Source: Candidatus Micrarchaeia archaeon
GTDB taxonomy: Archaea; Micrarchaeota; Micrarchaeia; CAILAH01
DNA length: 64,000 nucleotides
Assembly: GCA_038874595.1 (NCBI GenBank)
Contig: JAVZCB010000006.1
Coordinates: forward strand, 1 to 64,000
Reading direction: 5' to 3'
Under the pieces are notes generated by a model. The model had not been told where the DNA came from. It did not search any database and worked only from the letters and a program-made list of their open reading frames with translations. This document shows positions 12,341 through 28,798 of the stretch, piece after piece. Every line of letters begins with the position of its first letter. The first letter of the stretch is position 1. Made by a program: the position numbers and the translations under genes.

Positions 12341-12451
12341 GCCTCCGTAGCTCAGTGGTAGAGCGCTCGCCTTGTAAGCGAGAGGTCGTGGGTTCAAATG
12401 CGCTGCTGAACGTGGTAAAATTCAGCAACGCTGGATTTCCCACCGGGGGCT
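12341..12451 (+). tRNA. tRNA-Thr(TGT) with a 39-nt T-loop intron at 59/60 (intron 12399-12437)
   Basis: GCCTCCG/CGGGGGC acceptor stem, CT-TGT-AA loop; T-loop interrupted by a hairpin with a BHB (TTCA/TGGA, bulges AAT and TTT, GCG/CGC). Confidence 0.93.
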
Positions 12452-14618: not shown

Positions 14619-15118
14619 TTGTTAACACCCTTTTTCCTGAGCTCCTTGCCCAGCTGTTCCCTGAGCTTGATATTGTGTAGGAACGCCTGGAGCGCCTCAC
14701 CCTTGAGCGTGTTCCGTATTATGAATTGCGATAATGCATACGATGTCTGCGATGCATCATTCATTATGTCCTGTATCTCTGCAAACGTGATTATCCTTTT
14801 TTCCGGCTCAAGGACTTCACAGTGGACTGGACCGTACGCCATTGCAATCCTGACAGCGTTCCTGGCATCTTTCGTGAGCACTTTGATTGAGCCAGAGGTT
14901 GAGTAAATAACCTTCCCGTCAAACTCTTCCCTGATAGGCGGCTCAATCTCGCCTATGGCGTACACTACTCCATCCTCCTTTGTTATTTTTGCAAACAAGT
15001 CAGTAAGCCTGTTCTTAACACCTTCCTCATCATTTGCGTGTGAGTCAAAGTACATATTAAAAAGCAGGCCACCTTTGTTTATTATTTCTTCAGTAACTCT
15101 CTTGACATCTTTATGCAT
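14615..15118 (-). CDS. Hypothetical protein coupled to the KaiC-like gene
   Basis: 167-aa ORF with ATGA overlap; YGP..EVLEP motif. Confidence 0.75.
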   Translation of the reverse strand: MHKDVKRVTEEIINKGGLLFNMYFDSHANDEEGVKNRLTDLFAKITKEDGVVYAIGEIEPPIREEFDGKVIYSTSGSIKVLTKDARNAVRIAMAYGPVHCEVLEPEKRIITFAEIQDIMNDASQTSYALSQFIIRNTLKGEALQAFLHNIKLREQLGKELRKKGVNK

Positions 15119-15274
15119 AACATTCCATTAGTTACTTAATGAATAAAAAGGTATTCTGCACAAGTGCGCATATTTAAATTAAGATGCTATACCCGTACAT
15201 ATCTTTTGTCTTTAGCCCTGTATACTCCTCATATCCCTTGAGCGCTAAGCAAGCAATTTATTACACTATGGAGG

Positions 15275-15443
15275 TTATTCTTTTGCATCATTTTTTCTTA
15301 GCAGTTCTGCGAGCACAATATTACGTTTATCCAAAGCATACATAAGCACTTTAATCTTTTTCTTCTGATACTTTTAATTTGTTGAGATGTTTGAATTCAT
15401 ATTCTCTTTTTTCACATTTTTGCTATTACTATTTTTCTGTCAT
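15275..15443 (-). pseudogene. Probable degraded, internally deleted ankyrin-repeat gene
   Basis: Broken frames read EFKHLNKLKVSEEKD and VLMYALDKRNIVLAELLRKNDAKE*, resembling the N- and C-termini of the intact ankyrin protein at 24680. Confidence 0.5.
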
Positions 15444-15557
15444 CTTTGTGAAATGGTTTAAGTGCGAGCAATACGCTTAATGATCCTATGCTAAGAAGGT
15501 TTCCAGAGCTTTTTCAATAGAAATATTTAAATATAATAGTTTCTCCAAGAGCGCTGT

Positions 15558-17240
15558 ATGTCAAAAACCCTAAAAATAATAGGTGCTACTTCATTAGCGG
15601 TTGTAGCATTTGCAACATCCGCGGTTACTTATAATTCTCACTCGCACGTTTCACCTGCGATAGAGCAGCGCGCACCCGCAGCCAAGCTCTCAGATGAATT
15701 GCAGAAAGCGCGCAAAAAGGTAAGCATACCAGAAGACCAATGCAAATCTATAACGAAAAACGCAGTGGAAAAGTTCAATAACCTTAAAATACCACCAGAT
15801 GTGGTATACAGCAGCAGGGTTTGGTTTTACTCTTATTCGAACGACCAGAGGTGCGGATTTTTCTATCCCAAAGGACAGGGTTATACAGTGGTATCTTCTC
15901 GTGATGGGTGCGAGCGTGAATTGCTTCATGCAGATGCGCACAAGCTTTACAACAGCATATCGCGTTTCATAGAAAATGACCCCATAGCCAGAAAAAAGTT
16001 CTCAGAGATGCTCTTCAATATCATTGGGAAGAACCCTGATGTTGCAGGCAAGATTTATTTTGCCAATTTCAGCTACAACGGTAATGTCCCTTCAATAGGC
16101 CCGGCGTGGGGCGGGTGGCTCACAGGGCGCGCCAGAAAGGCAGAGGAAATTTATAAGGGGCTTGAATACCTTTTTGCCGCAGGTGCAAAAAGCGCCAGAG
16201 CGCCCGCAAGCACTGCCACTGGCGCACCGAATGATGCAGGTGCAGGCAATACCGTGGCAGACCGCGCTTTGTATAATGCGCAGCAATCAATTATCGGGAC
16301 AGGTTTTGTTGGCACTGGCACAGGCACGGACATCTCAGATTTGCAGCGTGATTACTTTGGTAAGTTTTTGAGGGCGCTTGAGGCTTCCGCACAGGCGGTG
16401 AGCGACCAGCGCACCTACAAAGAGCTCATGCGTGAGATTGGCAAACTTAAGGAAATATACGAATGGGCAAAAACAAACTATTCTGTGAAAAAGAATGAAA
16501 AACCCGCCGCTTTGGCTAAGAAGCCGCCTGTGGCCGTTGAAAAACAGTTCAAGGAAATGCGCAATAGTATGCAGAATGCACTGGACCTTCTCCGCAAGAG
16601 CTCCCCGGCAGCGGCAGCCTATCTTGGAGAGTGGCTTGCATCACAGGTAATGCCAGTGCTTATGGAAGAGATGTTTGCACGGCTCAATGAAGACCTGGCC
16701 CTGAAACGTAACAGTGCAATTATGGGTGGCAGTATACGAGGTCAACCTATGAAACGCAAAGATGCAAATGTAGGTGGAAATGCAAAAGGCGATGTTTCCA
16801 AGCGCAAAGATGCAATGGTTAATGAAAAAGCAATAGTGGATAAAGAATCACTTTCCACACTGCTTGAAATTGCCTCAATCATCCTTAATAAAGTTGAAGC
16901 AGGTGAGTACAAGGACAAGGAAGGTGCGCTTAAGGTAGCAACTCATATACGCCGCCTTGTAAATCATTATCTTAATGACAAGGCACAACCAGAAGACACA
17001 AAACAAGCTGCAGGCATAGGTTGGCAGGATGTATTAAAAGAGCCCAGATGTTTCAAGAACGCTGAGAGTGCAATAATCGCCGCTGAGCTTGATGAGGTGG
17101 AGCGCTTGCACAGGAGGAATATGGACATCCTGGCCCAACTGCCGGAAGAGAGAGTATTTTACCTAAGTTACCTGTTTTCGCTCTTTATGCTTGCCGGTGC
17201 AGGATATCTGGCATATACAGGCACTCGTAAGGAGGATTAG
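15558..17240 (+). CDS. Hypothetical exported protein with N-terminal signal/anchor and C-terminal TM helix
   Basis: 560-aa ORF, TATA-like TTTAAATA upstream, hydrophobic termini. Confidence 0.75.
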   Translation: MSKTLKIIGATSLAVVAFATSAVTYNSHSHVSPAIEQRAPAAKLSDELQKARKKVSIPEDQCKSITKNAVEKFNNLKIPPDVVYSSRVWFYSYSNDQRCGFFYPKGQGYTVVSSRDGCERELLHADAHKLYNSISRFIENDPIARKKFSEMLFNIIGKNPDVAGKIYFANFSYNGNVPSIGPAWGGWLTGRARKAEEIYKGLEYLFAAGAKSARAPASTATGAPNDAGAGNTVADRALYNAQQSIIGTGFVGTGTGTDISDLQRDYFGKFLRALEASAQAVSDQRTYKELMREIGKLKEIYEWAKTNYSVKKNEKPAALAKKPPVAVEKQFKEMRNSMQNALDLLRKSSPAAAAYLGEWLASQVMPVLMEEMFARLNEDLALKRNSAIMGGSIRGQPMKRKDANVGGNAKGDVSKRKDAMVNEKAIVDKESLSTLLEIASIILNKVEAGEYKDKEGALKVATHIRRLVNHYLNDKAQPEDTKQAAGIGWQDVLKEPRCFKNAESAIIAAELDEVERLHRRNMDILAQLPEERVFYLSYLFSLFMLAGAGYLAYTGTRKED

Positions 17241-17269
17241 GATTCTATCTTGCCAGCGGTAGCGTTAAC

Positions 17270-17277
17270 TTTATATA
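17270..17277 (+). promoter_or_regulatory. TATA box for the structured RNA / DUF167 operon
   Basis: TTTATATA about 25 nt before the GC-rich structured segment. Confidence 0.55.
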
Positions 17278-17297
17278 TAGTTTTATGCCTTAAATAA

Positions 17298-17556
17298 GCT
17301 GCTGCGCATGGATGGCCACAGGAGTATCGTAGCGCAATGATATGCCAGCCTGGCTCGCCAGGCGGGTGCGCCTCCCGTGAATGCGGCTGTGCGCATGGTC
17401 GACAGTGCGCAGCATAGCCTTTCTTCAAATACGAAGATGGCCGTATCAGGGCAACGCTTTGTACGGCGGGCTATAGCAGTATCCACTTGCAGGTGCTGGT
17501 GGGGACTGCATTAATGCTACGGAATAGGTGTTAACGGCCTATCATAAGCGGGGGCC
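17298..17556 (+). ncRNA. Unidentified highly structured RNA (or long structured 5' leader)
   Basis: GC-rich intergenic segment with at least seven nested helices and pairing 5' and 3' ends; no tRNA, 5S, SRP or RNase P signature seen. Confidence 0.65.
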
Positions 17557-17559
17557 AAA

Positions 17560-17811
17560 ATGAAAGTTGATGTCAAAGTGCATCCGCGCTCAAAAAGCGT
17601 TATGATAAAGGGCGGTGACGTGTGGGATGTTTATCTCACCGAGCCGGCCGAACACAACCGTGCGAACAGGCAGCTCCTGGATGTGCTTAAGCGCGCATTC
17701 GGCTGCGAAGTATCGCTCGTAAGCGGGCACACGAGCCGAAAAAAGACGGTGCTTCTGGGCCTTGGCGAGGAGGAATATAATGCGCTCAAGGAAAAGTACC
17801 GGCCTGGATAA
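17560..17811 (+). CDS. DUF167 / UPF0235 (YggU-like) protein
   Basis: VKVHPRS...PA..NRAN..L...SGHTSRKK. Confidence 0.88.
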   Translation: MKVDVKVHPRSKSVMIKGGDVWDVYLTEPAEHNRANRQLLDVLKRAFGCEVSLVSGHTSRKKTVLLGLGEEEYNALKEKYRPG

Positions 17812-18142
17812 TGCAATATCACGGCTGGTAACTGACCTGAACGACCGTCTGGTCATAGTTGAGGGCAAGCGCGATGTCGCAGCCCTTGGGAAGGTTGGTG
17901 TCCGTGCACACGTGCTAACGCTTGACAAGCTTCAGCATATGGAACGCATCACAGCAGATGAGGCAGTAATCCTGACCGATTTTGACCGTGCAGGTGAGGC
18001 AAAGCTCATGAAAGCTGAGTCGATCCTTATCGGGAAAGGTATCAGGATAGATACAGGCCTTAGGGAGCGTTTCAGGCGGATTTTTGGCATCACCACAATA
18101 GAGGATTTGCCCCGCGCTTTTGAGAAGCTGGCACACCAGTAA
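17780..18142 (+). CDS. Stand-alone TOPRIM domain protein (UPF0292 / RNase M5-like)
   Basis: IVEGKRD and LTDFDRAG motifs; GAGGAGG precedes ATG 17780. Confidence 0.88.
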   Translation: MRSRKSTGLDNAISRLVTDLNDRLVIVEGKRDVAALGKVGVRAHVLTLDKLQHMERITADEAVILTDFDRAGEAKLMKAESILIGKGIRIDTGLRERFRRIFGITTIEDLPRAFEKLAHQ

Positions 18143-18164
18143 GAAATAGGAAATGGTGATGTAA

Positions 18165-19589
18165 ATGGGAAAGATATACATAGATACTATCAAGTATATG
18201 GTGTATGCTGACTTTGAGATTAAAGGCCTTGTGGAGAAGCCGGATGTTGTAGGTGCAATTTTTGGCCAGACTGAAGGCCTGCTTGGTGACGAGCTTGACC
18301 TGCGTGAGATGCAGAAAAGCGGCAGGATAGGCAGGATAGAGGTTGAGCTGACACCACGCGACGGCAAGAGCATCGGTAAGATACTACTTCCGTCAAGCCT
18401 TGACATGGTCGAGACTTCAGTAATTGCAGCCGCAATTGAGAGTGTTGACAGGGTCGGCCCGTGTGAGGCACGGATAACCGTCTCCAAGATTGAGGATATG
18501 CGCAGTGTGAAGAGGAAACAGCTCGTCTCGCGTGCGAAATCCCTACTCAAGACACTCGTTACCGAGACGTTGCCGGAGAGCAAGGAAATCCTTGATATGG
18601 TCCGTGATGAGGTTAAGGCTTCCGGTGTGGTTGAATATGGTCCCGAGCGCCTTGTTGCAGGGCCAGATATTGATACATACGATTCTATAATCGTGGTTGA
18701 GGGCCGTGCAGATGTGATAAACCTGCTCAAGAATGACATAAAAAACGTAATTGCGCTCGGTGGCGCATCCGTGCCCAAGACGATTGTTGAGCTCAGCAAG
18801 AAGAAGGAAATAACACTATTTCTTGATGGAGACCGCGGGGGCGACATAATCCTGAAAGAGATGCTGGCAGTTGGTGATATCGATTTCGTTGCAAGGGCGC
18901 CGCCCGGGACAGAGGTTGAAGAGCTTTCGAGAAAAGAGCTGATAAAGGCTCTCAGGAGCAAGGTGCCCGTCGAGCAGGCAGAATCGCAATTCTATGGCCG
19001 CAGCAAGAGACCGCCCTCACGCGATTTCCGTGAAAGGAACAAGCGTCTTGGTGAAGATGAGGAAGTCCAGGCTGAAAAGTCATCATACAAACAACCCTCA
19101 TATGAGCAGCAGGAGCAGGTGGGAGCGCGCAGTGAATTGAGAAGGCAATCTTTCGTGCAGGAGCAGGATGAGCGTACAACTGCAGAGAGGCCGGCGGTAC
19201 GCCTTGAAAAGAGGGAGTTTGAGCGGTCGCAGCGTTATGAGCGCGCAGAGCAACAGCAGCCCGAGAAGGCCGCATCGCAGGATGATACCTCACAGGTGCC
19301 GGCTGTGATGCCGCAGGAGTTAAAGTTGCATCTTGATGAGCTGAACGGCACACTGAGGGCGCGGCTGCTTGGCCCTGCAAACGAGCTCATTAAAGAGCTG
19401 CCGGTGCGTGATTTGATAACTGAGCTTAATAGCAGCGAGTCTGCACCAGCATCAGTTGTGCTTGATGGGATAATAACACAGCGCCTGCTTGACCTTGCTG
19501 CAAGCAAGAAAATAAAAAGCATTGCAGGAATTAAGGTAGGCAGCATAACAAAGAGGCCTGCAGGGGTTGCCATATTCACATCACAGTAG
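18165..19589 (+). CDS. dnaG: Archaeal DnaG (exosome-associated TOPRIM protein)
   Basis: VEKPDVVGAIFGQTEGLLG, VEGRADV, DGDRGG and DGIITQRL motifs. Confidence 0.96.
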   Translation: MGKIYIDTIKYMVYADFEIKGLVEKPDVVGAIFGQTEGLLGDELDLREMQKSGRIGRIEVELTPRDGKSIGKILLPSSLDMVETSVIAAAIESVDRVGPCEARITVSKIEDMRSVKRKQLVSRAKSLLKTLVTETLPESKEILDMVRDEVKASGVVEYGPERLVAGPDIDTYDSIIVVEGRADVINLLKNDIKNVIALGGASVPKTIVELSKKKEITLFLDGDRGGDIILKEMLAVGDIDFVARAPPGTEVEELSRKELIKALRSKVPVEQAESQFYGRSKRPPSRDFRERNKRLGEDEEVQAEKSSYKQPSYEQQEQVGARSELRRQSFVQEQDERTTAERPAVRLEKREFERSQRYERAEQQQPEKAASQDDTSQVPAVMPQELKLHLDELNGTLRARLLGPANELIKELPVRDLITELNSSESAPASVVLDGIITQRLLDLAASKKIKSIAGIKVGSITKRPAGVAIFTSQ

Positions 19590-28314: not shown

Positions 28315-28694
28315 CTGCTTTTAAAATAAATATCTACGCCCGAGACGCAAAAGCAGAAGAAGTTGTTCAAAGGAAGAAAACTGCTTTTAAAATAAATATC
28401 TACGTCCTAGACAGGATCGAGCAAATGCGTAGAATTTGCGAGAGTTGTGGAGGGCAACGCCCGAGACAGGATCGAGCAAATGCGTAGAATTTGCGAGAGT
28501 TGTGGAGGGCAACGCCCGAGACAGGATCGAGCACTGATGGGGGCTTAGCCCCCCTCGTGTGGTCTACACCCCCCAATTTACGATTTTTCTAAATAACTGA
28601 TGGTTTTAAGTAATTAAGAGATAACGTCCTAGACAGGATCGAGCAAATGCGTAGAATTTGCGAGAGTTGTGGAGGGCAACGCCCGAGACAGGAT
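28315..28694 (-). repeat. tRNA-Asn-linked repeat array (copies of the tRNA 3' end separated by inserts)
   Basis: cg(c/t)cc(g/t)agacaggat at 28403, 28458, 28513, 28625 and 28680 (the tRNA itself), partial copy at 28337; a 55-bp unit occurs three times. Confidence 0.9.
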
Positions 28695-28798
28695 TTGAAC
28701 CTGTGACCTTCCGATTTCAGCCGTTTCCGGTGCAGTTTTTCGTGTATCCAGATATATTGGCTAACAGTCGGACGCTCCACCAGCTGAGCTACTCGGGC
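28680..28798 (-). tRNA. tRNA-Asn(GTT) with a 46-nt intron at about 37/38 (intron 28716-28761)
   Basis: GCCCGAG/CTCGGGC acceptor stem, TCCGA-CT-GTT-A...A-TCGGA, ACAGG-TTCAAAT-CCTGT, discriminator G. Confidence 0.93.

Follow-up and report, generated by a model that had tools for sequence, protein, structure and literature searches.

Conserved hairpin upstream of the DUF167–Toprim–DnaG genes

We analyzed a 64,000-nt stretch of DNA from a Candidatus Micrarchaeia archaeon (assembly GCA_038874595.1, contig JAVZCB010000006.1, positions 1 to 64,000 of the forward strand; hereafter the window), part of a genome of 0.92 Mb in 7 contigs. A GC-rich noncoding block at 17298–17556 lies ahead of genes for a DUF167 protein, a small Toprim-domain protein, and a DnaG-like Toprim protein. 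A preliminary description had taken the whole block for a new RNA class of about 250 nt. In our analysis the conserved part shrinks to a hairpin of 65 to 70 nt with archaeal H/ACA features, and the remainder becomes a genus-specific insertion and a variable leader. We propose that 17301–17416 probably encodes a single-hairpin box H/ACA guide small RNA (sRNA) that is conserved in Micrarchaeota. The elements of the locus, including the predicted kink-turn (K-turn), are as follows.

17270–17279 (+): TATA box TTTATATATA, 22–31 nt before the first base of the hairpin
17301–17309 (+): 5′ strand of the lower stem, GCUGCGCAU, pairing with 17405–17413
17310–17314 (+): putative 5′ pocket (guide) strand, GGAUG, which complements CAUCC in the A-loop hairpin of 23S rRNA
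17315–17323 (+): 5′ strand of the upper (GA) stem, comprising G6 (closing G·U with U17399), CCACAG, and the GA of the K-turn
17324–17340 (+): mini-hairpin of the K-turn C-stem, GUAUCGUAGCGC, with the 3-nt bulge AAU and the second GA
17344–17396 (+): 53-nt insertion interrupting the upper stem in its 3′ strand, with two extra hairpins, present in the window's genus only (L004, L005)
17397–17399 (+): GGU at the 3′ base of the upper stem, forming G-C, G-C, and the closing U·G6 pair
17400–17404 (+): putative 3′ pocket (guide) strand CGACA, which would pair with GUUG of the A loop and end beside the target U
17405–17413 (+): 3′ strand of the lower stem, GUGCGCAGC, with covarying pairs
17414–17416 (+): ANA box AUA, which is ACA in most of the class
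17417–17559 (+): structured spacer or 5′ leader up to the DUF167 start, beginning with the pyrimidine-rich CCUUUCUUC and ending in a GGCC...GGGGGCC hairpin around the ribosome-binding site (helices predicted by RNAfold)

The conserved unit was delimited by BLASTN of 17280–17560 against 60 relatives, with matches remapped locally. In the two other genomes of the window's genus, only query positions 1–143 and 244/250–281 are conserved, so that 17424–17529 of the spacer is not retained even within the genus; the last ~35 nt of the spacer are. In five genomes of other genera of the family and in two of other families, the pieces 17301–17343 and 17397–17426 directly adjoin each other. Because these pieces adjoin in other genera, the conserved unit, as defined by sequence comparison, is a short hairpin of about 64–71 nt (17301–17343 plus 17397–17416) and not the whole 250 nt. 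The view that the 250 nt form one conserved RNA thus fails in both the same-genus and the other-genus comparisons, the latter of which keep only the ~68-nt hairpin, and the long-range helices proposed with it (17328/17516, and 17311/17536 closing the ends) are without support outside the genus. Pairing of 17301–17309 with 17405–17413, which had been presented as an alternative fold, constitutes the conserved, covarying stem.

A covariance model was built from 10 sequences and run on 151 sampled genomes of the class within Micrarchaeota at E ≤ 0.01 (an unpublished genome, G085, is included only in the 151-genome tallies). The model matched 65 of the 151 genomes and 46 of the 107 of high quality. 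The hairpin is present in a single copy per genome, except in G001, where it occurs on two contigs, and in G043, which has a weak second match. By family, it was found in 7/8 genomes of f1, 10/10 of f6, 16/18 of f15, and 6/6 of f23, as well as in others, and the model search did not detect it in f4 (0/9), f5 (0/21), f9 (0/13), f11 (0/5), or f13 (0/2) and found it in 1/15 genomes of f7. A more sensitive model search of five genomes of f4, f7, and f11 returned nothing below E = 0.86.

When 185,579 species genomes were scanned for an exact IUPAC pattern, 92 stretches matched. Among the 80 of them listed, 75 carry titles of Micrarchaeota lineages (Micrarchaeia, Micrarchaeum, Fermentimicrarchaeum, Burarchaeum, Anstonellaceae, Bilamarchaeaceae); the remaining five are titled "archaeon" (three), "ainarchaeum" (one), and Streptomyces (one). 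The covariance model matches 79 of these 80 listed loci and misses only that of Streptomyces. Records from the pattern scan overlap the sampled genomes, and 91 distinct plus-strand sequences remained after removal of duplicates. Full-text literature searches on Cbf5 and pseudouridine in Micrarchaeota found no description of an H/ACA guide RNA for this phylum. The covariance model could serve to annotate this single-copy RNA gene of the phylum.

Within the window, the block contrasts in composition with nearby spacer, the G+C fraction being 0.59 at 17300–17499 versus 0.32–0.34 at 15000–15599; its description as GC-rich holds. The motif TTTATATA is present at 17270, and the reading of the block as a noncoding RNA with its own TATA box is supported. 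The individual helices listed earlier also lie where they had been placed (cgtagc 17328/gctacg 17516; gcctgg 17348/ccaggc 17358; gctgtgcgc 17386/gtgcgcagc 17405; 5′ gctgcgca 17301). Folding of the 271-nt segment 17290–17560 with RNAfold gave a minimum free energy (MFE) of −116.5 kcal/mol on the plus strand, versus a mean of −100.3 for 200 shuffles (z = −3.22), one of which was equally stable; on the minus strand, z was −2.16.

The block does not belong to a known RNA family by the screens employed. A search with the Rfam 15 covariance models, as the preliminary description had proposed, found no family at gathering score, C/D and H/ACA families included. Over 17150–17700 at E ≤ 10 it returned only two noise matches, PtaRNA1 (15.4 bits, threshold 47) and SNORD39 (13.4 bits, threshold 35), and over the whole window four tRNAs, none of them in the block. 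ARAGORN found no tRNA gene in the interval 16500–18500 or in 11 related loci. We set aside RNase P RNA and signal recognition particle (SRP) RNA, of which the genome's own copies sit on other contigs, and an intron-containing tRNA, for which neither ARAGORN nor the Rfam tRNA model gave a cloverleaf. Inspection likewise revealed no RUGAUGA/CUGA boxes, so that a C/D box sRNA was rejected, as was a basal K-turn of the hairpin, since the GA of the 3′ strand does not adjoin the terminal stem. Small open reading frames in the block (45, 31, 63, and 67 aa) match no Pfam family, and the stretch is missing in relatives.

What sets the window's genus apart is the 53-nt insertion. Its 3′ end, GCUGUGCGCAU, which is the gctgtgcgc helix noted above, is a near copy of the 5′ stem strand, and this near-repeat suggests origin by partial duplication. 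One of the inserted hairpins shows a compensatory change within the genus (CCUGG/CCAGG to CUUGG/CCAAG). In the predicted fold of the 116-nt RNA 17301–17416 (MFE −58.2 kcal/mol), the lower stem is kept and the insertion hairpins branch off the upper stem. A scan for bulge-helix-bulge introns gave two weak motifs with 2-bp outer helices, neither of them at the borders 17343/17344 and 17396/17397, and we therefore interpret the insertion as an expansion rather than an intron. Insertions of other kinds occupy this site elsewhere (L061 and, going by longer model matches, G072, G076, G092, and G145). The extra hairpins, together with the long structured spacer, would make the locus resemble a multihelix RNA of 250 nt.

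Proposed H/ACA architecture and candidate partner proteins

According to Toffano-Nioche et al. 2015 (PMC4652768), archaeal H/ACA guides have a lower stem of 7–9 bp followed by an ANA box, and a K-turn or K-loop in the upper stem. The distance from the closing pair to the box is 14–15 nt, about 10 stacked layers separate the closing pair from the G·A pairs, and no pairing joins the two pocket strands; folds are typically 10/5/9 or 10/6/9. The Micrarchaeota hairpin follows the consensus GCUGYGCA-N / GGAUG / G / C-N5 / GA-G / small hairpin / N-R/Y-U-GA / 6-7 nt / G-U / CRACA / N-UGCRCAGY / ACA. Its lower stem of 9 bp lies within the range of archaeal guides, and an ANA box (AUA in the window) follows it. 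With the invariant G·U as closing pair, the spacing to the ANA box is 14 nt (a 5-nt strand plus the 9-nt stem), as in the 10/5/9 fold; it would be 15 nt if the C-G pair above closes the pocket and 13 nt if the G-C pair below does.

The lower stem is complete, with 9/9 pairs, in 69 of the 91 distinct sequences and has 8/9 pairs in the other 22. Two-sided changes reveal covariation at positions 5, 7, 8, and 9: position 5 is C-G in 26 sequences and U-A in 64; position 8 is A-U in 70 and G-C in 21; and position 9 is U·G in 28, U-A in 25, A-U in 23, and C-G in 14. Overall, 97.3% of lower-stem cells are paired, versus 88.4% in shuffled data (a value of 97.3% was reached in 0 of 500 shuffles) and 17–42% when the partner strand is slid. 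The box directly after the stem is ACA in 51 of the 91 sequences, AUA in 10, AAA in 4, UCA in 10, CCA in 1, and another triplet in 15, so that 65 carry ANA and 76 carry either ANA or NCA.

A strict parse handled 82 of 94 distinct sequences, leaving out three reverse-strand matches and nine plus-strand sequences in which the K-turn is nonstandard or a base has been added. The 5′ pocket strand GGAUG is invariant in all 82, an invariance that is partly built in because GGAUGG was required by the scan pattern and used as the parsing anchor. The 3′ pocket strand is CAACA in 75 parsed sequences and CGACA, the form of the window's family, in 7. Above the pocket, the closing pairs are nearly fixed (C-G in 81/81, G·U in 79/81).

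The upper stem covaries: its 5′ strand occurs in 51 different versions and its 3′ strand in 64, and with the best nested pairing they form on average 4.18 of 5 pairs, versus 3.39 with shuffled partners (maximum of 500 shuffles, 3.60; n = 85). Its length, counted from GGAUGG to the GA, is fixed at 6 nt on the 5′ side in every sequence with a standard GA and is 6 or 7 nt on the 3′ side. GA follows this fixed 6-nt spacer in 82 of 91 sequences (GAG in 77), the opposite strand reads N-R/Y-U-GA, and the pair beside the K-turn GA is G-C in 74 of 82. The apical C-stem covaries as well (e.g., GCUUUAAGC, GGUAUAACC, and ACUUUAAGU). Judged by this sequence signature, the upper stem contains a K-turn, which is predicted to bind L7Ae.

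The same layout recurs in the single-hairpin H/ACA sRNAs of other archaea (Pyrococcus Pf9/Pab; Sulfolobus islandicus sR115 and sR435). These share with the Micrarchaeota hairpin a 9-bp lower stem, an ANA box directly 3′ of it, a loop 14 nt from the box, and an upper-stem K-turn in the same orientation, with GA in the 5′ strand and N-R-U-GA in the 3′ strand. The Micrarchaeota RNA differs from them in having no Rfam similarity, in its 5+5-nt and partly self-complementary pocket, in the lack of a detected Gar1, in its fixed position before one operon throughout the class, and in the hairpin insertions that its GA stem has received in several lineages.

The protein partners of such an RNA are encoded in the same genome, where Cbf5 (274.4 bits, cut-off 238), Nop10 (54.2 bits), and L7Ae (99 bits) all score above their cut-offs. 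A second L7Ae-family match of 61 bits lies at C4:114237-114515, the best being at C3:140860-141126; it is possibly L30e or another paralogue. Across the class, a Nop10 match is found in 62 of the 65 RNA-bearing genomes and in 60 of the 86 others. The 29 genomes without one comprise 15 of f5, 9 of f9, 2 of f13, 2 incomplete genomes of f1, and 1 of f23. Families f5, f9, and f13 have neither a Nop10 above the cut-off (the visible matches in f5 and f9 fall below it) nor the RNA, and the association between Nop10 and the RNA is confounded by phylogeny.

We also scanned the genome with a crude H/ACA descriptor, which recovered 15 of 22 positive-control loci. It returned nine weak, AT-rich matches, each with 8/9 stem pairs. 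As no other convincing H/ACA hairpin emerged from this crude scan, the hairpin may be the only one in its genome, as in Nanoarchaeum equitans (Randau 2012, PMC3491384). Compared by description, the N. equitans case is similar in that a strongly reduced DPANN genome has a single identified H/ACA sRNA, with K-turns, a box A promoter of its own, and a pyrimidine stretch as terminator. It differs in that the sRNA is 159 nt long, has two hairpins, and is flanked by a tRNA synthetase gene on one side and a hypothetical gene on the other.

Predicted target in the 23S rRNA A loop

The two pocket strands suggest a candidate site in rRNA. When the 8.2-kb rRNA operon is searched with the 5+5-nt pocket and no more than one mismatch is allowed, a single canonical X-U-N-Y site remains, at nucleotide 2589 of the large-subunit (LSU) rRNA, GGUUG-UU-CAUCC. 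The surrounding sequence, CCAAGGGUCGGGUUGUUCAUCCGUUAAAG, is helix 92 with the A loop UGUUC. We take the target to be the counterpart of E. coli U2554, from an alignment with the E. coli sequence. In this numbering, CGACA would pair with G2553, U2552 (a G·U pair here, A-U in the class), U2551, and G2550, and GGAUG with C2556–C2560, leaving U2554 and U2555 unpaired.

The A-loop region was retrieved from 40 of 120 genomes with a BLAST match. The site is compatible with the pocket in all 20 RNA-bearing genomes among them, which represent 13 families. Six genomes, all of them without the RNA, are incompatible, two of f5, two of f9, and one each of f16 and f4; in G012 and G105 the target U is replaced by C. 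These two genomes, of f5 and f9 (Nop10 not above cut-off), have the A loop UGCUC instead of UGUUC and a helix-92 stem that is GGGC/GCCC-like. In some relatives a gap interrupts the 23S match near a point just 3′ of the A-loop region; it measures ~100 nt in G091 and G120 and ~900–1000 nt in G080, G112, and G144.

A pseudouridine in this region is known from yeast, where PMC2879522 assigns psi2923 to the 3′ hairpin of the H/ACA small nucleolar RNA (snoRNA) snR10. The yeast A-loop Um-Gm is given as 2920/2921 in PMC1766470, one lower than the numbering used here. By our sequence mapping, the predicted target would be the homologous helix-92 loop uridine, the residue after U-G of UGUUC, which suggests that U2554 is homologous to yeast psi2923. 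The two RNAs themselves have no sequence homology: snR10, a eukaryotic snoRNA of two hairpins, has H and ACA boxes but no K-turn. In functional archaeal guides, duplexes can range from 3 to 10 bp, and one guide forms 6 bp in all (PMC11077068).

Other targets were considered. With 6+6-nt guides, no canonical target is present in the rRNAs. Genome-wide, such guides gave three matches versus ~3.5 expected by our estimate, of which just C1:78441 forms standard pairs throughout except for a single position; it is antisense to a membrane pyrophosphatase open reading frame. A strand of the peptidyl-transferase center (LSU ~2533–2560) is complementary to both pocket strands by hand pairing, but with a 6-nt gap, and we set it aside as probably due to chance.

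Operon context and competing explanations

Downstream of the hairpin lie three genes.

17560–17811 (+): DUF167 (YggU family) gene, Pfam PF02594, 54.5 bits
17762–18142 (+): gene for a small Toprim-domain protein (Pfam Toprim_4, Toprim), overlapping the DUF167 open reading frame by 50 nt
18165–19589 (+): gene for a DnaG-like Toprim protein (Pfam Toprim families), with an N-terminus resembling the open reading frames directly after the RNA in L046, L055, L061, and L062

The overlap of the first two (17762–17811) is in different frames and depends on a called TTG start; the true Toprim start may lie further downstream. Directly upstream of the RNA, a 560-aa open reading frame (15558–17240, +) matches no Pfam family at E ≤ 0.01.

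The link to the DUF167–Toprim–DnaG genes, suggested in the preliminary description, extends to the class. Among 78 loci, the first open reading frame after the hairpin is DUF167 in 44 and the small Toprim gene in 18; the 16 without a family match are short spurious frames or N-terminal pieces cut by the 500-nt flank. In an overlapping set of 30 loci, DnaG, judged by eye, is the first gene in four (L046, L055, L061, L062). The gap from hairpin to open reading frame is mostly 20–60 nt, usually with no second TATA box. A TATA-like box precedes the stem by 26–30 nt in 44 of 87 distinct loci, and in most others the hairpin follows the stop codon of the upstream gene. As the RNA lies directly upstream of DUF167, Toprim, or DnaG in nearly all genomes, it is probably cotranscribed with them. 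Reads of one metatranscriptome run from a related study gave no coverage of the stretch.

In many families a CU-rich motif, YCCUNCUCAUUYU, stands between the hairpin and the start codon, 0–60 nt after the ANA box (e.g., L053, L047, L104, L108; 17419–17426 in the window). The motif sometimes follows an extra inserted segment. Many copies include a CUCC that could pair with GGAG of the downstream ribosome-binding site. Pyrimidine stretches are the terminators of N. equitans sRNA genes, including that of its single H/ACA sRNA (Randau 2012, PMC3491384). Here, termination may be leaky, or the transcript may be processed, the same promoter serving the operon as well.

A number of observations weigh against a guide function. 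Counted in stacked layers, the GA stem has 9 on the 5′ strand and, on the 3′ strand, 10 when that strand is 6 nt (28 sequences) or 11 when it is 7 nt (53 sequences), so that the 10-layer rule is followed only approximately; the count depends on stacking of the extra base. In the window, the 53-nt insertion inside the GA stem could disturb its geometry further, and in 15 of the 91 sequences the expected place is taken by a triplet other than ANA or NCA. Folding predictions close the pocket: RNAalifold and RNAfold both pair UGGCC with GGUCG, leaving a 3×3 loop, with G·A and A·A mismatches below. A hairpin target forces the two guide strands to be partly complementary to each other, which would explain the closed pocket; the closure makes the guide reading less probable. 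Gar1 scored above cut-off in none of the 151 genomes, in a search that passed only two of four archaeal controls. Gar1 is not known to be required for RNA binding.

The target prediction is similarly exposed. The match between guide and target is only 5+4 bp, and shuffled operons contain on average 0.91 such sites, so that a 9-bp match is not significant by itself. The same A-loop site is compatible in 14 of 20 genomes that lack the RNA, and target compatibility therefore discriminates poorly. Families f4, f7, and f11 possess Nop10 and a compatible A loop, yet the RNA was not detected there apart from 1/15 genomes of f7. Strict synteny with one operon across a class is, moreover, unusual for a trans-acting guide and fits a role in cis.

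Such a role would be that of a cis-regulatory 5′ leader of the DUF167–Toprim–DnaG operon, in which the K-turn is an operator for L7Ae or for an RNA-binding protein of the operon and controls read-through at the pyrimidine tract, or translation by way of the hairpin at the ribosome-binding site, without any guiding. It would account for the position of the hairpin on the same strand directly before DUF167 (44), small Toprim (18), or an unassigned frame (16) in the 78 loci, and directly before DnaG where DUF167 and Toprim are missing (L046, L055, L061, and L062, by eye). The short gap to the open reading frame (mostly 20–60 nt), usually without a second TATA box, the recurrent YCCUNCUCAUUYU ahead of the start codon, and the closed pocket also agree with it. 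We nevertheless consider it unlikely that regulation is the whole story, since it leaves unexplained the ANA box at a fixed distance of 14 nt, the 9-bp stem of exact H/ACA length, and the invariance of the pocket strands with their canonical complementarity to the A loop, and since about half of the loci lack a TATA box and have the hairpin after an upstream gene. The guide and leader roles are not mutually exclusive. The closed pocket would also suit an H/ACA-like RNA that binds Cbf5–Nop10–L7Ae without guiding pseudouridylation, either as a closed-pocket particle or as a chaperone of rRNA folding or processing, like the processing function of snR10/snR30. A precedent is sR666 of Sulfolobus islandicus, a K-turn hairpin that binds L7Ae and Cbf5–Nop10 although it lacks single-stranded guide regions; the passage on it in PMC11077068 reports no ANA box or target complementarity, in which it differs from the Micrarchaeota hairpin. 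The neighboring Toprim and DnaG genes are candidates for RNA processing, and by hand pairing both pocket strands are complementary to the genome's own peptidyl-transferase-center strand CGCUGUCGGCU...UCAUCC, with the 6-nt gap. With the class consensus CAACA, two pairs of this second match disappear (hand pairing), chance alone should produce 11 matching base pairs somewhere (our estimate), and a canonical candidate target exists; we regard a nonguide particle as improbable. That the whole of 17298–17556 forms one new multihelix RNA class of about 250 nt, closed by long-range helices, is very hard to sustain. The fold does surpass shuffles (z = −3.22), Rfam offers no match, and both other genomes of the genus again have a CUACG that complements the apical CGUAG. 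Against this, 17424–17529 varies even among members of the genus, the ~68-nt hairpin stands alone in other genera and families, with 20–60 nt to the open reading frame, and the end-closing helix 17311/17536 would use the invariant guide strand.

Under the H/ACA guide interpretation, which we prefer, L7Ae would bind the K-turn, and GGAUG and CRACA would open the helix-92 hairpin by pairing with CAUCC and GUUG, leaving U-N unpaired. Cbf5 would then convert the A-loop U matching E. coli U2554 to pseudouridine. The RNA would form the head of the DUF167–Toprim–DnaG transcript, initiated at the RNA's own TATA box, and would either end at the pyrimidine tract after the ANA box or be cut from the read-through transcript. 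In a more speculative extension, which we rate as quite improbable, the H/ACA particle assembles on the nascent operon leader and has two jobs: it would act as the sole canonical guide, for the A loop, and its occupancy by Cbf5–Nop10–L7Ae would decide termination or processing at the pyrimidine tract, thereby coupling Toprim/DnaG expression to ribosome biogenesis, with the GA-stem hairpins tuning the switch.

If the guide assignment is correct, very small genomes keep Cbf5–Nop10–L7Ae together with one highly conserved guide, directed at the A loop of the peptidyl-transferase center. The modified residue would be the same as that targeted by eukaryotic snR10, arguing that the modification is old and important. 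The locus would also offer a clean case for the study of archaeal sRNA–mRNA cotranscription, and it suggests that hairpin insertions can occur in a GA stem whose length is otherwise tightly constrained.

Other RNA genes of this genome have unusual lengths. The 16S rRNA match (C3:81098-83186, outside the window) spans 2089 nt versus a 1478-position model, which implies ~600 nt of inserted sequence, probably one or more introns. Within the window, the tRNA genes at 28680–28798 (−) and 2145–2274 (−), which score 59.8 and 44.2 bits, are lengthened by inserts (47 and 50 nt, respectively) located in the anticodon arm or close to it. A further tRNA match at 12341–12394 (+) covers the full model in 54 nt (37.8 bits) and may be a truncated or unusual tRNA.

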